DNA of 40,654 nucleotides, taken from positions 1 to 40,654 of the forward strand of contig JADFMT010000003.1 in assembly GCA_022563755.1 (NCBI GenBank). The letters run 5' to 3'. Positions 1-20,517 of this stretch are shown here, piece after piece. The stretch comes from Patescibacteria group bacterium (GTDB lineage Bacteria > Patescibacteriota > Minisyncoccia > HO2-45-28). Position numbers and translations under genes: made by a program. Below the pieces are notes generated by a model. That model had not been told where the DNA came from and ran no database searches. It worked only from the letters and a program-made list of their open reading frames with translations. Within the stretch, counting starts at the first letter, position 1. The number at the start of each line of letters is the position of its first letter.

Positions 1-1
1 C

Positions 2-331
2 GAGATTGAGCTCGCAGATACCTCAGAAAAAAGGGTTCATGGCCTTTCCGGAAGAGATAAACTTTTTGAAAACCAAGGGATGCTCTTTATATTCGATAAA
101 CCGGATTTTCATTCGATTTGGATGAAAAATATGCATTTTGCACTGGACATTATTTGGATCGATGAGGAATGGCGAGTTACAGATATTACGAAAAATGCTC
201 TGCCAGAATCGTTCCCTCAAACATTTCAACCCACCTCCCTTACAAAATACATTCTTGAAGTCAATGCCGGATTTACAGAGAAAAACCGTATCAGGATTGG
301 AGATCGGGTCGAGGGAATAAAAAAAGAATAA
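2..331 (+). CDS. DUF192 domain protein (5'-partial)
   Basis: Frame is open from the window edge: EIELADTSEKRVHGLSGRDKL..GMLFIF..IWMKNMHFALDIIWID..YILEVNAG..IRIGD, the typical DUF192 motif series. Confidence 0.9.
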   Translation, partial: EIELADTSEKRVHGLSGRDKLFENQGMLFIFDKPDFHSIWMKNMHFALDIIWIDEEWRVTDITKNALPESFPQTFQPTSLTKYILEVNAGFTEKNRIRIGDRVEGIKKE

Positions 332-333
332 TA

Positions 334-420
334 GGCGGGATGCCGGAGTGGTTTAACGGGGCGGTCTCGAAAACCGTTATATCCGAAAGGGTATCGGGGG
401 TTCGAATCCCTCTCCCGCCG
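334..420 (+). tRNA. tRNA-Ser(CGA)
   Basis: Acceptor GGCGGGA/TCCCGCC, anticodon arm GCGGT-CT-CGA-AA-ACCGT, long variable arm, T-loop TTCGAAT, discriminator G, no CCA. Confidence 0.95.
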
Positions 421-450
421 CATCTAACAGCTAGCACGAGGTAGTATCAT

Positions 451-1113
451 ATGACGACAAAAAAAGAAAAAGACAGGCAAAGAAAATATGACTGGGTTGT
501 TTTTGCTCAGAGTTATTTCTTGATAGCAAAGTTGGCCTGTCAAGAATTGTTAAATACTGAAGAAAAAAAGCACAGCAAAGTCAAAGGTAAGGATTATTTT
601 TATCAGCCAGCAGATTTGTTCGTGCCAATTTTGTTTAATATAAAACATGGAACCGAAGTCTTTGTTAAGGCCTTAGGTCTTTTTGCGTATGGGGAGTATA
701 GAGAAGGTCATGATATCCATCATCTATTTATAGAAGTTAAACAAAAAATATCAGATCAAAAAATATCTCCTCCTATAGAAAAGAAATACTATGACGCAGT
801 AACAAATGAGGACATTACTAATTCTCAGAAAGATTTGGATGATATTGAACCTCTTATTCTTTATTTTTACAATCTAGAGATATTAAAATCAAAAATCGGA
901 CAATACTACTCAATTAAAGATACCCAAAATGATTTTCTAAGATACCCAGATAATAAAGCAACGGTTCAAATTGATTGGGGCACTGTGCTAAGTAGTCGAA
1001 TTGAAGTAACTGACATAAAAGATATGCTTAGCAAATTGGATGAATTACTTGAATTATTCAACAAAGTTGGATACTTGTACGCGGTTCTAGATCGATCTAA
1101 CAGAATCACTTAA
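451..1113 (+). CDS. Hypothetical protein, HEPN-like helical fold
   Basis: 220-aa AT-rich ORF. LFNIKHGTEVFVK, GHDIHHLF and FLRYP resemble the H-x-E-x-LK / H-x-L / RYP pattern of HEPN proteins. Confidence 0.6.
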   Translation: MTTKKEKDRQRKYDWVVFAQSYFLIAKLACQELLNTEEKKHSKVKGKDYFYQPADLFVPILFNIKHGTEVFVKALGLFAYGEYREGHDIHHLFIEVKQKISDQKISPPIEKKYYDAVTNEDITNSQKDLDDIEPLILYFYNLEILKSKIGQYYSIKDTQNDFLRYPDNKATVQIDWGTVLSSRIEVTDIKDMLSKLDELLELFNKVGYLYAVLDRSNRIT

Positions 1114-1122
1114 GAATCTTAT

Positions 1123-1159
1123 GTGCACGAGAACATTAGTTTTGATAAAATAAAAATAT
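1123..1159 (+). repeat. Ser-array junction repeat S1 (includes extended -10)
   Basis: GTGCACGAGAACATTAGTTTTGATAAAATAAAAATAT aligns without gaps to 1654-1690 and 2070-2106. Confidence 0.8.
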
Positions 1160-1649
1160 GAATAACAAAAATATAGTTATCTATTTACTCATATTACTTT
1201 TGGGAATTTCTGTATACTTAAATTTAAAAGACGACAATTCCCAAAGAAAATATATAGAACAAAATATTAAAGCAGAAGAAGCTTTTGGAAACCAAATTGG
1301 TGAGTTACCACTCTTCTCTTCTGCCTGTTTCCCAACTTACAAACAGGTTTGTACTTATGGTGAATGTGAAATAATTACAGACTTAGGAACATCTTTTAGT
1401 CTTTTGGATAATCTTAATACAGACCAGCGTACCATCTCTCGTTGTGATTCTAATGGCTGTGATACTTACGATGCTCAATATTATGCTTCTGGTTTATATG
1501 AAAATTATCAAGCAGAACAGCCGCGTGGATTTTTTCTCAAAAAAGAAAATAAATCCCTTGTTGATACAGAAACTACATCGTATACAGAAGTGGCCACTCA
1601 GGGAGTAACGACTTTTCTATATTCTGGGTATTGCAAGGATGTAAAATAA
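1158..1649 (+). CDS. Hypothetical membrane-anchored or secreted protein
   Basis: N-terminal hydrophobic helix (IVIYLLILLLGISVYL) followed by a domain with six Cys; AT-rich. Confidence 0.75.
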   Translation: MNNKNIVIYLLILLLGISVYLNLKDDNSQRKYIEQNIKAEEAFGNQIGELPLFSSACFPTYKQVCTYGECEIITDLGTSFSLLDNLNTDQRTISRCDSNGCDTYDAQYYASGLYENYQAEQPRGFFLKKENKSLVDTETTSYTEVATQGVTTFLYSGYCKDVK

Positions 1650-1653
1650 CAAA

Positions 1654-1690
1654 GCGCACGAGGACCTTAATTTTGATAAACTAAAATAGT
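1654..1690 (+). repeat. Ser-array junction repeat S2 (includes extended -10)
   Basis: GCGCACGAGGACCTTAATTTTGATAAACTAAAATAGT, 33/37 identical to S3. Confidence 0.85.
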
Positions 1691-1706
1691 CAATAAAATT
1701 ACGAAA

Positions 1707-2027
1707 ATGAAAAAGAATGCTCACATAGAAGAACAAAAAAAGGATTCGAGTGCGCCCAATAGTAGACCTGCGTTCGTTAGAATTGCTCCAGGTGCAAAGG
1801 TAGATGGTCTCACTATGGTAGATAATACAGCAATAGGTGACGCTGATTTTCTAGACAACCAAGGAGAACTTAAAGACGCAACACTTGAAGGCAATAAACA
1901 TATTGTTCCAAATAACACAATCTCAAAAAGAGCCCTATGGAAGAGACCAGAAATAGTAATCCCTACAATAATAGCTATTATTTCAATCCCTTGGTGGCCT
2001 AGCATTTTCCGTTTATTATTTAAATAA
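1707..2027 (+). CDS. Hypothetical protein with C-terminal transmembrane helix
   Basis: 106 aa, directly behind the S2 promoter motif; C-terminal IVIPTIIAIISIPWW. Confidence 0.7.
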   Translation: MKKNAHIEEQKKDSSAPNSRPAFVRIAPGAKVDGLTMVDNTAIGDADFLDNQGELKDATLEGNKHIVPNNTISKRALWKRPEIVIPTIIAIISIPWWPSIFRLLFK

Positions 2028-2069
2028 ATGTAAGACATAGTTATTAAATTAGACTACTAATTTTCAAAT

Positions 2070-2106
2070 GCGCTCGAGGATCTTCGTTTTGATAAACTAA
2101 AATAGT
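2070..2106 (+). repeat. Ser-array junction repeat S3 (includes extended -10)
   Basis: GCGCTCGAGGATCTTCGTTTTGATAAACTAAAATAGT. Confidence 0.85.
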
Positions 2107-2114
2107 TAAAATAA

Positions 2115-2165
2115 CCTTACGGGGCTTGATCGGCCACGGTTCCAGCCCGAGGTAGCCCGCCATGA
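2115..2165 (+). repeat. 51-nt imperfect hairpin element, copy A
   Basis: CCTTACGGGGC...GCCCGCCATGA; same length and ends as 2747-2797. Confidence 0.7.
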
Positions 2166-2195
2166 TTATTTATTATCGAAGGTAATCCACAGCCT

Positions 2196-2693
2196 ATGAA
2201 AGAGTTACTAATTCAAATTCAAAAAGGACTTGATACAAACTTATATTTTCTGGCTCTATTTACTGCCTTAGCTATACCTGATATATGTGGTGCTTTGAGT
2301 TCGGAAAATGGAGAAACAGACGGCCAAAAGTATAAAGCTTGGTTCGACCAGTATATTGCGCCTAAATATATAAATTTTACTGATGGTGCAGACTGCTATC
2401 GGTTTCGTTGTTCTCTATTACACCAGGGCAGATCTCAACTCAAAGATAGTAAATTTAGTAGGATTTGGTTTATAGAACCCGGCACGACTAGTGTGGTGAT
2501 GCACGATAATACTTCAAACGATACTCTAAATATTGATGTGGGGGTATTTTGCAAAGATATTATTGCCGGTGCAGAAGAATACCTAAGCAAGAATGAACAA
2601 ACGGATTTATATAAAACAAATTACGATAAATTCGTCCGCAGATACCCAAATGGAATACCCCCTCTTATTACAGGCGTTCCTGTAATTGGCTAG
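2196..2693 (+). CDS. Hypothetical protein, HEPN-like with RxxxxH motif
   Basis: LAIPDICG near the N-terminus, Y..WF..Y, and YRFRCSLLHQG (R-x4-H, the HEPN RNase signature). Confidence 0.65.
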   Translation: MKELLIQIQKGLDTNLYFLALFTALAIPDICGALSSENGETDGQKYKAWFDQYIAPKYINFTDGADCYRFRCSLLHQGRSQLKDSKFSRIWFIEPGTTSVVMHDNTSNDTLNIDVGVFCKDIIAGAEEYLSKNEQTDLYKTNYDKFVRRYPNGIPPLITGVPVIG

Positions 2694-2746
2694 TATTAAG
2701 CCGACCCACGTGCCTAAATTTTTCTTTGGAAAAATCTTCTAAAAAC

Positions 2747-2797
2747 CCTTACGGGGCCTCACTTGTGGTGGCACTAGACCCAAGTGGCCCGCTATGA
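2747..2797 (+). repeat. 51-nt imperfect hairpin element, copy B
   Basis: CCTTACGGGGCCTCACTTGTGGT-GGCACTAG-ACCCAAGTGGCCCGCTATGA, a bulged stem-loop. Confidence 0.7.
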
Positions 2798-2882
2798 CAA
2801 ATTAAAATGCCTTGCTTTTTTGTATTGCTTATATAAAATTAATACGGCAATTAACTTCGCACATTTATAAAGAGGATTTGAA

Positions 2883-3992
2883 ATGGCCAGAGGAGAATAT
2901 GCCCAGGCAGGAGTTGATTATACGAAGATTGAACCCTTTAAACAGGCAATGATGGAAGTGGGCAGAAAAACGTTAGCTTTCCCCAACAAACGAGATGTTT
3001 TTGTGGAAACACACGCTCACGGTGCTGTCCATGAATATCGGGGCTCAAAGCCTCACGGTTGGGCCAATACACAAGAAGGCTTAGGCAATAAAAACTGGAT
3101 TGCAGAGTGGATGTACCAGAATGATGGTACAGGAAACACTTATTACGAAGGAATTGGGATTGATGCGGCTTTAATGGCAGTAAATGATGTTATTGCCCAA
3201 GGGGCAATGCCCGTGGTTTACACTGATGAAGTTGCCGCAGGCGATAGCGAATGGTTTGAAGACGCCAAGAGGGCAGAAGATTTGGCGAGAGGGTATTATC
3301 GTGTTTGCAAAATGGTTGCAATGGCTTTGCCTGCGGGCGAATCATCGTCTCTGCGTTATCTCGTCAACGCAGAACCACCGGTTAAAAGTGCTCCTGTCTT
3401 GAGCGGCTGCGTAACGGGTATTATTGTTCCCCGAAGCCGCCTGATTACAGGAGAAAACCTTCGGGCAGGAGATTGTATTTTAGGTGCGCCCTCTTCAGGA
3501 CTGCACGCCAATGGTATTTCTCTTGTTATTAAACGCGCTCTTCCACTTCCAGACCAGTTTCTTACGAAACTACCGAATGGCAAAACATTAGGAGAGGAAG
3601 CTCTTATTCCTACTCGCTCTTATGTTGCTTTGGTTGAGGCATTATTGAACGAAGAGATAGAAATACATGCCCTCCTTCCAGGAACAGGAGACGGCGTAGG
3701 GAAGGTTGCTTTTGATAAACGACCCTTTACCTATCGGATTTATGACTGGGTTCGCGTGCCGCCCCTTTTTCAATTTATGCGAGAATTGGGAGTTACTCTG
3801 AAAGATTGTCTCAAGACTTTTAACTGGGGGGTTGGCTATTACATCTTTGTGCCACCCTGCGAGGTCACGCGAGCAATTGATATTGGTGACAAAGCGGGTT
3901 ATGAGGTAGTTGAGGTCGGAAGAGTTGAAGAAGGAAAACGGCAGACTATCTTTGAGCCTGAAAACATTATTTTGCCTCCTCCGGGCCAGTAG
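2883..3992 (+). CDS. purM: AIR synthase / phosphoribosylformylglycinamidine cyclo-ligase (divergent PurM family)
   Basis: YAQAGVD, MAVNDVIAQGA-P, SSGLHANG-SL, L-PTRSY and TFNWGVG motifs. Confidence 0.8.
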   Translation: MARGEYAQAGVDYTKIEPFKQAMMEVGRKTLAFPNKRDVFVETHAHGAVHEYRGSKPHGWANTQEGLGNKNWIAEWMYQNDGTGNTYYEGIGIDAALMAVNDVIAQGAMPVVYTDEVAAGDSEWFEDAKRAEDLARGYYRVCKMVAMALPAGESSSLRYLVNAEPPVKSAPVLSGCVTGIIVPRSRLITGENLRAGDCILGAPSSGLHANGISLVIKRALPLPDQFLTKLPNGKTLGEEALIPTRSYVALVEALLNEEIEIHALLPGTGDGVGKVAFDKRPFTYRIYDWVRVPPLFQFMRELGVTLKDCLKTFNWGVGYYIFVPPCEVTRAIDIGDKAGYEVVEVGRVEEGKRQTIFEPENIILPPPGQ

Positions 3993-4014
3993 CTTTATTC
4001 ACTTTTTAGTACAC

Positions 4015-4040
4015 ACCACCTTATACGGGTGGTTTTTATT
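4015..4040 (+). terminator. Intrinsic terminator after purM
   Basis: ACCACC..GGTGGT stem followed by TTTTATT. Confidence 0.65.
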
Positions 4041-4095
4041 TAATTGATTTTGAGAGATTCGGGTGATATGGTTAAAAGCAAAGAAATGATCCGTT

Positions 4096-4875
4096 ATGAA
4101 AGCGCGTATTGACCATTATCTTCGCTTGGCATTCGAGCATACCGAATCACGCGTGTATCACGTCGTGAATGATACCCTTGCTATTATTATCGTGATTGCG
4201 GTAATCTTGGTAATTTTTGAATCCATAGAGGGTGTATATCTTCGTTACGGGAAAATTTTTGATATAAGCGAGATAATCATTGTAGGTGTTTTTACGCTCG
4301 AATATATCACCTATATCTATCTTGCTCCTAAGAAAAAGAAGTATTTATTTAGCGCCTTTGGAATCATTGATCTTCTTGCGATTCTGCCGACCTATCTTGG
4401 ATTTATCTTCCTGCCATTCGCCAACTTCAGGGTTCTGCGTGTCCTGCGGATCGTGAGAGTATTGCGGCTGCTGCGACTTTTACGGCTGCTTAAATTGCTT
4501 TCTTATACAAAACGACGCCACCCGGGAGAACGGATAACGTTCAAGGAGTTCCCGTGGTACACCATGGAGATTTATTTTTTTGCGCTTCTCTCGGTTGTCG
4601 TCATCGCAGGAACTTTCATGTACCTTGCCGAGCAAAACGTTTCAGGATCCCTTTTTACAAACGTCCCGCAAGGTATGTGGTGGGCAATTGTCACTTTGAC
4701 AACGGTGGGATATGGAGACATGGTCCCGCAAACAATATTAGGACGAATCATTGCGGCGCTCACTATGATTTCCGGACTCATGCTTTTTGCGCTCTTAATC
4801 AGTGTCGTGGGGAAAATCATGAAAAAAATTCTCTTCGGATCCCCGGATGAAATCACGGTAAAAGAAAAAGAGTAA
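4096..4875 (+). CDS. Voltage-gated potassium channel (ion transport family)
   Basis: TTVGYGD selectivity filter, WWAIVTLT pore helix, IIDLLAILP S3 segment and Arg-repeat S4. Confidence 0.93.
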   Translation: MKARIDHYLRLAFEHTESRVYHVVNDTLAIIIVIAVILVIFESIEGVYLRYGKIFDISEIIIVGVFTLEYITYIYLAPKKKKYLFSAFGIIDLLAILPTYLGFIFLPFANFRVLRVLRIVRVLRLLRLLRLLKLLSYTKRRHPGERITFKEFPWYTMEIYFFALLSVVVIAGTFMYLAEQNVSGSLFTNVPQGMWWAIVTLTTVGYGDMVPQTILGRIIAALTMISGLMLFALLISVVGKIMKKILFGSPDEITVKEKE

Positions 4876-7287: not shown

Positions 7288-7359
7288 GGTCTGGTAGCCA
7301 AGTGGCAAGGCAAGAGTCTGCAAAACTCTTATACGGGGGTTCGATTCCCCCCCAGACCT
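7288..7359 (+). tRNA. tRNA-Cys(GCA)
   Basis: GGTCTGG/CCAGACC acceptor, AGAGT-CT-GCA-AA-ACTCT, discriminator T. Confidence 0.95.
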
Positions 7360-7427
7360 CCCTAGAACAATCTGCAAAGCAGATTGTTCTGGCAATCAAT
7401 TCGCTTAGCGAATTGATTTAGCCAAAC

Positions 7428-7509
7428 GCCCGGGTGGCGGAATTGGTTTACGCAGCGGACTTAAAATCCGTAGCCGCAAGGCTTGTGGGTTCGAATCCCA
7501 CCCCGGGCA
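7428..7509 (+). tRNA. tRNA-Leu(TAA)
   Basis: GCCCGGG/CCCGGGC acceptor, GCGGA-CT-TAA-AA-TCCGT, long variable arm. Confidence 0.95.
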
Positions 7510-7519
7510 TATAACATAC

Positions 7520-7601
7520 GCCCCCGTGGTGAAATTGGCAGACACGCATGGTTTAGGACCATGTGCCGAAAGGCTTAGAGGTTCGAGTCCTCTCGGGGGC
7601 A
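7520..7601 (+). tRNA. tRNA-Leu(TAG)
   Basis: GCCCCCG/CGGGGGC acceptor, CATGG-TT-TAG-GA-CCATG. Confidence 0.95.
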
Positions 7602-7606
7602 CATAT

Positions 7607-7678
7607 GGGCGGCTAGCTCAATGGTAGAGCGCTCGGTTTACACCCGAGAGGTTTCAGGTTCAAATCCTGAGTCGCCCA
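7607..7678 (+). tRNA. tRNA-Val(TAC)
   Basis: GGGCGGC/GTCGCCC acceptor, CTCGG-TT-TAC-AC-CCGAG. Confidence 0.95.
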
Positions 7679-7727
7679 CAAAAAGGGATGATATTGATGG
7701 ACCGGGATATCATGGTATAATGAGTAT

Positions 7728-8000
7728 ATGAAATTCGAAAAACCGAAGGAGGGCCAGCATATCGGGGGCGGAACCCCTCTAAAAGAAGCTCTAAAGGAGA
7801 CTAGGCAAGTCGCGCAAGAACGAACAGCGTATGAAGAAGAAATGAGAGAAAAAATAGAGAAAGCAAAAAAAGAAGGGGATTCTAAACTCTATATAGAACT
7901 CAATGAGGAACTTAAGAGGAAAGAGAAAGAATTTATACAGCAGGAAACTAAGATTGCAAAACCCGTTGCCGGAAGCAGAGGGTACAAACTGCCTGAATAG
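7728..8000 (+). CDS. Hypothetical charged helical protein
   Basis: 90-aa E/K-rich ORF preceded by TGGTATAAT extended -10 only 6 nt upstream of the ATG. Confidence 0.75.
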   Translation: MKFEKPKEGQHIGGGTPLKEALKETRQVAQERTAYEEEMREKIEKAKKEGDSKLYIELNEELKRKEKEFIQQETKIAKPVAGSRGYKLPE

Positions 8001-8015
8001 TTAGTATATAAAATT

Positions 8016-8087
8016 GCCGCGGTAGCTCAGTGGTGGAGCGCTTGCTTGAAGAGCAAGGCGTCGGGGGTTCGATTCCCTCCCGCGGCA
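8016..8087 (+). tRNA. tRNA-Phe(GAA)
   Basis: GCCGCGG/CCGCGGC acceptor, CTTGC-TT-GAA-GA-GCAAG, T-loop TTCGATT. Confidence 0.95.
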
Positions 8088-8379
8088 CTCAAAACAAAAA
8101 GAATGGCATCGCGTCATTCTTTTTGTTTTGAGTTGATGATAGAAACAGGAATCGAACCCTACGAAAGGGGGTACCAGCCGCGAGGCTCTTTCGCAAAGCG
8201 AAAAGCCCCGTCTCCGGGGAAAACTGTAGTTTTCCCCGTGGCGGAAAACAGCGAGACTGAGCTTGTCGAAGCCGAGCGCTAGAAATCCTTCGACACTGAG
8301 CTCAGGACGAAGTGCCGAAGGATTTCTAGGGAGGACCATAAGCGACGACGGGTTCTAGGAGCGCAGCGACGGATTCCCT
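8088..8379 (+). repeat. tRNA-linked structured element, copy 1 (Phe-type)
   Basis: A/T hairpin, then GGAATCGAACCC, a ~100-bp core shared with 15164-15443 and 20074-20352, then GGGTTC..GATTCCCT. Confidence 0.9.
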
Positions 8380-18203: not shown

Positions 18204-18333
18204 CGCAAAAGTTGTGATTTAAGAACGGTCTAAGCGCTACTCAAGCGCCAAAACTTGTATTCTGTGCGGAGCCCCTCACTTCGTTTCGGGACGCTACATT
18301 TTTCAGCCAATCGCTTCGCTCTTGGGAAAAATG

Positions 18334-18404
18334 TGCGGGTAGGGAGAATCGAACTCCCGTCATCTGATTGGCAACCAGATGTTTTGCCACTAAACTATAC
18401 CCGC
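18334..18404 (-). tRNA. tRNA-Gly(GCC)
   Basis: GCGGGTA/TACCCGC acceptor, TCTGG-TT-GCC-AA-TCAGA, T-arm GGGAG-TTCGATT-CTCCC. Confidence 0.95.
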
Positions 18405-20352: not shown

Positions 20353-20353
20353 G

Positions 20354-20427
20354 TGGGCGTTGGAGGACTCGAACCTCCGGCCTTCTCGATGTCACCGAGA
20401 CGCTCTAACCGGCTGAGCTAAACGCCC
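20354..20427 (-). tRNA. tRNA-Val(GAC)
   Basis: GGGCGTT/AACGCCC acceptor, TCTCG-GT-GAC-AT-CGAGA, T-arm GGAGG-TTCGAGT-CCTCC. Confidence 0.95.
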
Positions 20428-20445
20428 ATTTTTATTTTGTTTTTG

Positions 20446-20517
20446 TCTCCCCGGGAGGAATCGAACCCCCATCTAGGGCTTAGAAGGCCCCCATTCTGTC
20501 CGTTGAACTACGGGGAG
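20446..20517 (-). tRNA. tRNA-Arg(TCT)
   Basis: CTCCCCG/CGGGGAG acceptor, GGGGC-CT-TCT-AA-GCCCT. Confidence 0.93.

Follow-up and report, generated by a model that had tools for sequence, protein, structure and literature searches.

Within a 40,654-nucleotide stretch of DNA from a Patescibacteria group bacterium (the window), we examined the region at positions 421–2797, in which four small genes follow a tRNA-Ser(CGA) gene and are punctuated by a short repeat, S. We judge the chances to be about even that this region is an array anchored at a tRNA, built of cassettes that mostly hold a single gene and were acquired independently by site-specific recombination. The array would belong to a family of slots spread patchily through Patescibacteria, in which a conserved set of junction sequences delimits the cassettes. 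On this reading, the 3′ end of the tRNA gene and the 3′ end of a tRNA-like hairpin, H, would be the pair of att-type direct repeats that recombination leaves behind. A circular element with an H|J junction, where J is the sequence directly behind the tRNA, would recombine with the tRNA 3′ end, and later arrivals would stack. The recombinase would act in trans, and the AT-rich half of S would serve as the promoter for whatever lies downstream.

The original prediction, made from the sequence alone, placed copies of S at 1123, 1654, and 2070 and read each as a recombination site fused to a promoter. The repeat is real. Ungapped comparison over 37 nt reproduced the proposed 33/37 identity of S2 and S3 and gave 29/37 for S1/S2 and 27/37 for S1/S3, and a repeat finder returned a single family with three 48-nt copies (1120–1167, 1651–1698, and 2067–2114; 75, 100, and 83% identical to the reference copy, respectively). 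The 16-mer TTTTGATAAAMTAAAA, searched with up to two mismatches, occurs three times in the 40.6-kb window, each time exactly; the shuffled window held a mean of 0.46 occurrences, and three were reached in 1 of 100 shuffles. The truncated core that had been noticed behind the tRNA is GCACGAGG at 434–441, 13 nt behind the tRNA end, and S1 and S2 follow the preceding stop codons by 9 and 4 nt, as described (42 nt for S3). The array is AT-rich, with a GC content of 0.351 versus 0.445 in the remainder of the window, and its four genes are unrelated, pairwise BLASTP of their proteins never being better than E 1.9. A degenerate site proposed near 2707 is also genuine, and a covariance model aligned 2701–2792 with a whole repeat unit, although weakly (E 0.016). 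The features of the region and its flanks are given below; labels such as C8, C12, C17, C24, C27, C30, and C31 denote contigs of the window's own genome (781 kb in 47 contigs), whose 47 tRNA genes form the background for any tRNA linkage.

2–331, forward strand: 3′ part of a DUF192 gene (Pfam PF02643, E 7e-32), the conserved left flank of the slot
334–421, forward strand: tRNA-Ser(CGA), the anchor of the array (ARAGORN; 55.6 bits with the Rfam tRNA model)
422–441, forward strand: junction J, ATCTAACAGCTA and then the core GCACGAGG; recurs behind tRNAs
451–1113, forward strand: gene 1, 220 amino acids, weakly HEPN-like (sub-threshold Pfam HEPN match)
1123–1159, forward strand: S1, core GTGCACGAG and AT-rich promoter-like stretch, no H; runs into the ATG of gene 2
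1158–1649, forward strand: gene 2, 163 amino acids, with a hydrophobic N-terminus and cysteine (open reading frame [ORF] list; no known family)
1654–1700, forward strand: S2, core GCGCACGAGG and AT-rich promoter-like stretch, no H (repeat finder and model match)
1707–2027, forward strand: gene 3, 106 amino acids, with a hydrophobic C-terminus (ORF list; no known family)
2070–2162, forward strand: full unit U3, with S3 at 2070–2106 and H at 2115–2162 (model score 99.7 bits, E 3e-23)
2196–2693, forward strand: gene 4, 165 amino acids, probable HEPN fold with an invariant Rx4H (relatives and predicted structure)
2701–2792, forward strand: degenerate unit U4, with variant core S′ and variant hairpin H′
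2703–2722, forward strand: S′ (GACCCACGTGCCTAAATTTT), the variant core of U4; recurs exactly in the genome
2747–2792, forward strand: H′, the variant hairpin of U4; recurs on C30
2793–2813, forward strand: distal linker TATGACAAATTAAAATGCCTT, the right edge of the array; 21 nt identical after H on C24
2883–3992, forward strand: purM-like gene (AIR synthase-related; Pfam AIRS and AIRS_C), the housekeeping right flank

Beyond the three copies in the window, S is the 5′ half of a 92-nt unit in which the core GYGCWCGAGG is followed by AT-rich sequence that holds an extended −10 and then by H, a GC-rich element into which most S copies run on. In the window, H follows only S3, and S-only junctions such as S1 and S2 are the exception, accounting for 3 of 78 matches to the covariance model, which was built from 36 units. 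The same model matched S1 over 1123–1168 (E 0.0155) and S2 with 26.2 bits (E 6e-4; 2e-4 in a second scan). An H-derived 19-mer served as the search pattern for sequence records; it was too loose for high-GC genomes, and the 116 rows it returned were mostly chance matches in Actinomycetota and other high-GC genomes. With loci of GC > 0.52 removed before alignment, the units from different loci have a mean column identity of 75% over 92 nt.

In form, H resembles the top half of a tRNA, with two 5-bp stems in the fold read from the 36-unit consensus and pair counts. A 5-bp acceptor-like stem (GGGCT with AGCCC; 2122–2126/2154–2158 in U3) accompanies a T-arm-like hairpin (CCACGG-TTCCAGC-CCGAGG; 2134–2152), and about half of the H copies close with G-CCA (2159–2162). 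Such minihelices, which mimic the tRNA top half, share with H the acceptor-like stem stacked on a T-arm-like hairpin and, often, the G-CCA end. H differs from them in having a C in the loop where tRNAs have a purine and in being missed by the Rfam tRNA model at E up to 10. H is also absent from the Rfam families: a search of window positions 1–4200 against Rfam 15 at E up to 10 returned nothing beyond the tRNA-Ser itself and one chance match overlapping it on the opposite strand. The 92-nt unit is a candidate new structured nucleic-acid element. We rejected three other identities: a copy of the 3′ end of the local tRNA-Ser (the sequences differ), a small reverse-strand ORF running through the unit (indels interrupt the AT-rich part), and, within S, an Xer site of the dif kind (by eye only, its arms lack symmetry).

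The architecture recurs throughout the genome. Allowing up to two mismatches, the pattern CGAG-N8-TTTTGATAAAMTAAAA has eight matches in 781 kb (three on C8, three on C31, and one each on C24 and C17), all within arrays, and the reversed control pattern has none. The arrays on C8, C24, and C17 start behind tRNA genes, and the one on C31 behind a pseudo-tRNA end, with a partial tRNA 3′ end at the contig edge. Likewise, J, written ATCTAACAGCTAGCACGA(G/A)G, stands in the same or a nearly identical form directly behind four anchors in this genome: the tRNA-Ser(CGA) of the window, the tRNA-Trp of C24, the tRNA-Ser(GGA) of C27 and C12, and the pseudo-tRNA-Gln end of C31. It is also found behind tRNA-Ser genes of distant genomes, at other Patescibacteria loci. 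Given that J follows not only tRNAs but also H within arrays (C31 and loci L031, L033, and L139), the layout can be written as tRNA or H, linker and core, promoter-like stretch, one or more ORFs, and unit. The four window genes are co-oriented, as are the variable genes on C31, C24, C12, and C17. The genome has eight exact copies of S′, and in four cases a tRNA or pseudo-tRNA end lies no more than 200 nt ahead of the copy. Eight further tRNA genes in the window (7288–8088, 18333–18404, and 20353–20517) have neither J nor S behind them. To count tRNA linkage, we used distinct full-length units with sufficient upstream sequence. Among 46 with at least 1,400 nt, 12 had a same-strand tRNA end within 1,400 nt (seven Ser, four Gln, and one Trp), as did 8 of the 18 with at least 3,900 nt available over that longer distance.

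The unit is not confined to this genome. In a sample of 151 genomes of the same class (124 genera), the covariance model found it in 14 genomes from 11 genera at one to five copies each, and BLAST of the unit against eight other genomes of the family gave no match (0/8). The 19-mer search added about 40 low-GC loci, the records of which are titled Patescibacteria group, Candidatus Saccharibacteria, Paceibacterota, or Parcubacteria. Such high conservation combined with so patchy an occurrence indicates that the unit has spread horizontally. It had no match in a phage collection and one chance-level 35-nt match in a plasmid collection. A single contig of the viral collection IMG/VR (locus L139, 6.7 kb) bears the unit with the same layout, reading GTCAC repeat, unit, and then J; this contig may have been classified wrongly and come from Patescibacteria, or it may be a mobile form. 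A metagenome scan with the DUF192 protein returned relatives at no more than 45% identity, none with the unit, and our literature searches found no description of the junction unit.

These distributions bear on the possibility that S is the operator and promoter of a dispersed regulon in which one transcription factor governs resident genes. An operator of that kind would look much as S does, with a conserved core and its dyad-like element followed downstream by a −10-like box. However, every copy lies in an array (C8, C12, C17, C24, and C31) and none precedes a housekeeping gene elsewhere, so that, rather than being scattered upstream of conserved genes, the motif is confined to tRNA-linked arrays across the 781-kb genome. 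The unit is missing from the eight family genomes yet nearly identical in distant classes, and the core and the −10 are spaced differently in S than in J. We regard a regulon as very improbable.

Turnover of cargo can be observed at two slots. The tRNA-Ser(GGA) slot is present as two alleles in the assembly, C27:21437–22300 with a single 150-aa ORF and C12 (locus L132, minus strand) with a unit between ORFs of 208 and 379 aa, in the order 208-aa ORF, unit, 379-aa ORF. Across the tRNA and the initial 18 nt of J, the alleles are 95.5% identical over 89 nt; the right flank is 96.3% identical over 245 nt. The alleles rejoin at TATGACG, which supports the distal linker as the right edge of the array in the window. 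The differences begin right after the last base of the tRNA: the tRNA part of the alignment has 0 mismatches in 71 positions, the first 18 nt of J have four, and no similarity follows. The linker therefore travels with the cargo. The two alleles also explain why contigs break at these arrays, and they suggest that the assembly contains two co-assembled strains. The second slot is that of the window itself, of which C30 (locus L134:1–1800, minus strand) holds another version: the DUF192 gene, a different tRNA-Ser(CGA), a NUDIX gene, an H′-type unit, a pseudo-tRNA-Ser end, and an ORF. The contig of the window starts at a stretch shared with C30; over the first 165 nt the two differ at one base, and over the rest of DUF192 they clearly diverge (mean column identity 88% for the whole alignment). 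The four genes do not travel together as one block; the original prediction had named constant travel as one block as an outcome contrary to independent cassettes. In addition to the different cargo of the tRNA-Ser(GGA) alleles and the C30 slot, relatives of gene 4 and gene 1 were found in 4 and 3, respectively, of 400 other sampled Patescibacteria genomes and never in the same one. The closest ortholog of the purM-like gene (77% identity) directly follows a different gene with no tRNA or array upstream and was rejected as an example of the empty site.

Homologous recombination after DNA uptake, with tRNA, J, and unit acting as homology arms and no dedicated recombinase, could also exchange cargo in this way. 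The mosaic DUF192 flank would fit such an exchange, as would arrays free of recombinase genes. Such exchange leaves unexplained why one junction set recurs at different tRNAs and across classes, why units stack up in arrays, and why H tails match tRNAs as described next. We consider flank-mediated exchange quite unlikely.

In all 17 arrays whose anchor is known, the final tetranucleotide of H agrees with the identity of the anchoring tRNA, although these arrays are related to one another and do not represent 17 independent events. In 13 arrays behind tRNA-Ser or tRNA-Trp (tRNA end CCGC, one CCGT), H ends in CCGC in 10, TCGC in one, and CCGT in one, and is truncated in one; in four arrays behind tRNA-Gln (tRNA end CAGC), it ends in CAGC in three and CAGA in one. 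Given that this tail changes with no compensation in the 5′ strand (pair 61–176 is unpaired in 26 of 71 cells), the matching points to DNA exchange rather than RNA structure. The allelic linker differences, in turn, mean that the linker belongs to the incoming DNA, which would place the crossover at the 3′ ends of tRNA and H, as we consider likely, rather than in GYGCWCGAGG. The core would then be a candidate binding site; it brackets cargo as an 8–16-nt direct repeat, and subfamilies keep a short dyad beside it.

The original prediction can be restated in integron-like terms: the core itself is the crossover, a circular cassette of core and promoter inserts at the core behind the tRNA, and H is just what the last, resident cassette holds. 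The core alone is common to the junction behind the tRNA and all S copies, and the cassettes are co-oriented. At locus L028, a 16-nt direct repeat of core and flank with one base different brackets a single cargo gene, and S′ stands on both sides of the 379-aa ORF of C12. The short dyad 3′ of the core is kept while its sequence changes, as for a protein-binding site. Against this stand the linker between tRNA and core, which differs between alleles (4 of 18 nt versus 0 of 71 in the tRNA), and the matching of H tails, which a crossover in the core leaves unexplained. Furthermore, the genome has no integron integrase (its tyrosine recombinase scored 131 bits with TIGR02249 against a cut-off of 265), and the unit consensus has no attC-type RYYYAAC...GTTRRRY pair. 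We consider a crossover in the core unlikely. What stands of the earlier idea is the cassette array behind a tRNA and, plausibly, the promoter-like nature of the AT-rich half; what is not supported, in the form proposed, is the placement of the site in GYGCWCGAG, given that S is only half of the 92-nt unit and that the 3′ ends of tRNA and H are the best mark of the crossover.

The protein scored with TIGR02249, the one tyrosine recombinase of the genome, is of the Xer type, matching the XerD, XerC, and XerA models with 238–260 bits. At other loci, a scan of 47 flanking ORFs found a serine recombinase at one, split over two ORFs, and a homologous fragment adjoins the unit at a second. Other unit-bearing genomes have a single Xer-type gene; large serine recombinases are present in four of five, not beside the units, and absent from this genome and from one Saccharibacteria genome. 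The sequences show the architecture, how it recurs, the turnover of cargo, and the matching of tails; because no recombinase lies in the arrays, the recombination mechanism, like the promoter activity and the identity of the enzyme, is one that we infer.

Several observations weigh against site-specific recombination at tRNA ends. No array of this genome contains an integrase or transposase (11 cargo ORFs scanned), and serine recombinases are absent from the genome, whose one tyrosine recombinase is of the Xer type. What tRNA and H have in common as a repeat comes to only about 4 nt, and H is not a copy of the local tRNA, its T-loop-like loop (TTCCAGC) being unlike a real T-loop. The high similarity of S1, S2, and S3 within one array is unexplained by recombination at tRNA ends. 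We saw no excised circle, empty site, or junction read, no sequencing run being listed for window positions 300–3000. Ten of the 18 units with long upstream sequence have no tRNA within 3.9 kb, mostly those behind a GTCAC repeat, and four more had none in an additional 2.7–10 kb upstream; these tRNA-less units, often behind GTCACTTTTGTCAC, terminate co-oriented operons. Finally, a terminator-like hairpin lies within 70 nt after 13 of 51 units versus 28 of 530 control windows. Taken with the promoter-like S, these hairpins would be no less expected of a small RNA gene standing on its own; they would equally fit the tRNA's own terminator, moved to the far end of the insert.

The terminator-like hairpins would also fit a model in which the unit works as RNA with no recombination, either as a small RNA gene (promoter S, minihelix H, and terminator) or as a signal in a 5′ or 3′ untranslated region that is cut by RNase P or RNase Z (tRNA punctuation) and defines the mRNA ends of island genes. 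The G-CCA ends of about half of the H copies and a gene 4 relative that begins 2 nt after the CCA of a tRNA-Gln are in keeping with it. Covariation provides modest support for the H hairpin, whether in RNA or in single-stranded DNA. Over 78 matches, the tRNA-like minihelix pairs 85.9% of cells, with double changes in 7 of 10 pairs (equalled by 18 of 500 shuffles). Its covariation score of 0.151 exceeds the shuffled mean of 0.130 and was reached in none of 500 shuffles, and slid controls did not exceed 0.077. A competing minimum-free-energy fold of H was dropped, its covariation not being above shuffles. On the other side, all Rfam families, including the tRNA model, miss H, and the single-sequence fold is no better than that of shuffled sequences (z −0.5). 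The change from a Ser-type to a Gln-type tail breaks the terminal pair without compensation, and neither cargo turnover nor the presence of J behind tRNAs is explained. This model, too, seems to us improbable.

Other sequence motifs were noticed around the units and behind tRNAs. The direct repeat GTCACTTTTGTCAC(TTTTT) lies 17–20 nt upstream of many units, mainly those with no nearby tRNA (loci L014, L019, L021, L030, L033, L035, L049, L053, L059, L071, L073, L080, L086, L194, L196, and L197, as well as C31), and could be a binding site. A third post-tRNA motif, resembling TCCTGAGGAGCGAAGCGACGTAGGG, occurs at C17:6813, C30:1276 (minus strand), and C23:4068, where it follows tRNA-Gln(TTG) and tRNA-Ser(CGA) by 44–46 nt and the transfer-messenger RNA gene by about 50 nt; strings that look alike to the eye stand behind several tRNA-Ala genes. 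Another motif behind tRNAs was read as hammerhead-like, a reading we rejected because its core is not conserved. At C10:1066–3892, about 2.6 kb lies between a pair of tRNA-Ser genes (TGA and GCT) pointing toward each other, with an S′-type core behind each tRNA or behind a pseudo-tRNA end; this region is probably another S′/H′-type slot.

We also considered what the AT-rich half of S might do. As to the extended −10 that had been predicted in S1 and S2, TGATAAACT stands in S2 and S3, and TGATAAAAT in S1. By our own reading, TGnTAnAnT is kept in about 20 of 36 aligned units, with TAAAAT-type boxes in the rest. Each junction has its own −10-like box, TGnTAAACT or TAAAAT, immediately upstream of the next ORF. 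A two-hexamer sigma-70 scan (−35 and −10 hexamers spaced by 16–18 nt) called none of the S copies, because a −35 match is lacking. Since the extended −10 is kept while its surroundings vary, it is plausible that the AT-rich half of S behaves like a promoter. In S1, the start codon of gene 2 comes 6 nt after TAAAAT, and the recurrence of this geometry before other cassette ORFs suggests leaderless mRNAs. At S1 and S2, where the hairpin is missing and the putative promoter abuts the next gene, the transcript would probably be leaderless or nearly so.

Among the genes of the array, only gene 1 has any family match, to Pfam HEPN (E 8e-4, under the family cut-off), and its nearest Atlas clusters have HEPN in 11% of members. 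Genes 2 and 3 match nothing in Pfam, NCBIfam, or PADLOC. Gene 4 is probably HEPN-like, judging from its predicted structure: R71 and H76 (Rx4H) are invariant in five relatives, and the model (mean predicted local distance difference test score 72.6) has HEPN proteins as its best fold matches at a modest Z of 5–6, with nothing at E below 1 in a Foldseek search of the PDB. In two of the four genomes with gene 4 relatives, the gene is directly behind a tRNA-Gln, and in one case part of the tRNA's 3′ end is repeated behind the gene. In the other (locus L211:1426–1989), its ATG lies 2 nt after the encoded CCA of tRNA-Gln(CTG), so that tRNA 3′ processing could leave a leaderless mRNA. No tRNA lies within about 1.5 kb of any of the three relatives of gene 1. 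The right-flanking purM-like gene matches TIGR00878 (purM) at E 4e-45, under that model's cut-off.

Across loci, the cargo varies and is largely of defense type. Families include SLOG, Cthe_2314-type HEPN, nucleoside deoxyribosyltransferase-like, NlpC/P60, peptidase S51, S_4TM effector, SF1 helicase, NUDIX, DUF2779/Cas4-like, and ThsB-type TIR with PDC-M50. In the C31 array (locus L130:4656–6299, minus strand), the first three genes match PADLOC PDC-M50A, ThsB-type TIR, and PDC-M50B/ThsB and look like a candidate defense system carried as cargo.

Comparison with known systems helps to place the array. Integrons consist of intI, attI, and attC cassette arrays, in which promoterless cassettes are expressed from one platform promoter; attC carries an inverted R″/L″...L′/R′ pair, RYYYAAC...GTTRRRY. 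The arrays described here likewise have co-oriented single-gene cassettes at a fixed platform, hairpins of about 50 nt at the boundaries, and variable cargo. They differ in that the platform is a tRNA 3′ end, each cassette has its own promoter-like sequence, and the boundary element is conserved in sequence and not only in structure. They also lack an integron integrase and an attC-type R/L box pair; the ends of the 36-unit consensus show no such inverted pair, with no dedicated attC finder run. The system is not an integron. Classical tRNA-targeting islands and prophages are large and integrase-bearing, with exact tRNA repeats of 15–50 nt. They share with the arrays the 3′ side of tRNA genes and have direct repeats at both ends, for which the H tail would be the putative distal counterpart here, whereas the inserts in these arrays measure 0.5–2 kb and have no integrase.

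The closest analogue is the tycheposon islands of Prochlorococcus, and we regard the arrays as tRNA-anchored cassette islands of a new variety. In the published description, tycheposon cargo accumulates beside a few tRNA genes, including tRNA-Ser, with stacked elements and partial tRNA remnants; tycheposons bring their own tyrosine recombinase, often with replication genes, and are flanked by partial tRNA copies of about 40 nt (bioRxiv 10.1101/2020.12.28.424599). The likeness lies in tRNA-adjacent stacked islands with defense or niche cargo in a streamlined genome devoid of the usual mobile elements, and the window island starts exactly at the tRNA 3′ end (421/422), as in tRNA-targeting islands and tycheposons. 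The differences are that the arrays here have no recombinase, that their cassettes mostly hold one gene, and that their putative distal repeat is a conserved tRNA-like hairpin sharing about 4 nt with the anchor, accompanied by a promoter-like module. A true partial tRNA repeat, rather than the tRNA-like H, was seen at the gene 4 relative mentioned above.

Patescibacteria (the candidate phyla radiation) have genomes of less than 1 Mb with few recognizable mobile elements, and the exchange of accessory and defense genes among them is therefore poorly understood. The junction set could serve in practice to mark the flexible gene pool of Patescibacteria, with swappable slots behind tRNA-Ser, tRNA-Gln, and tRNA-Trp that span classes, Saccharibacteria and Paceibacterota among them. 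New defense genes could come from it as well, most of the cargo belonging to no known family. Should the junctions be recombination sites, they may serve as natural landing pads for genetic tools in organisms that are difficult to manipulate. A bolder proposal, which we hold to be doubtful, is that Patescibacteria practice an integrase-less, integron-like gene capture: tRNA 3′ ends would be the acceptors, H (joined to J in the circle) the cassette site, cassette-borne promoters would drive leaderless defense genes, and the cell's single Xer-type recombinase or an unrecognized enzyme would act in trans. If true, this would explain the fluid defense repertoire of these minimal genomes.

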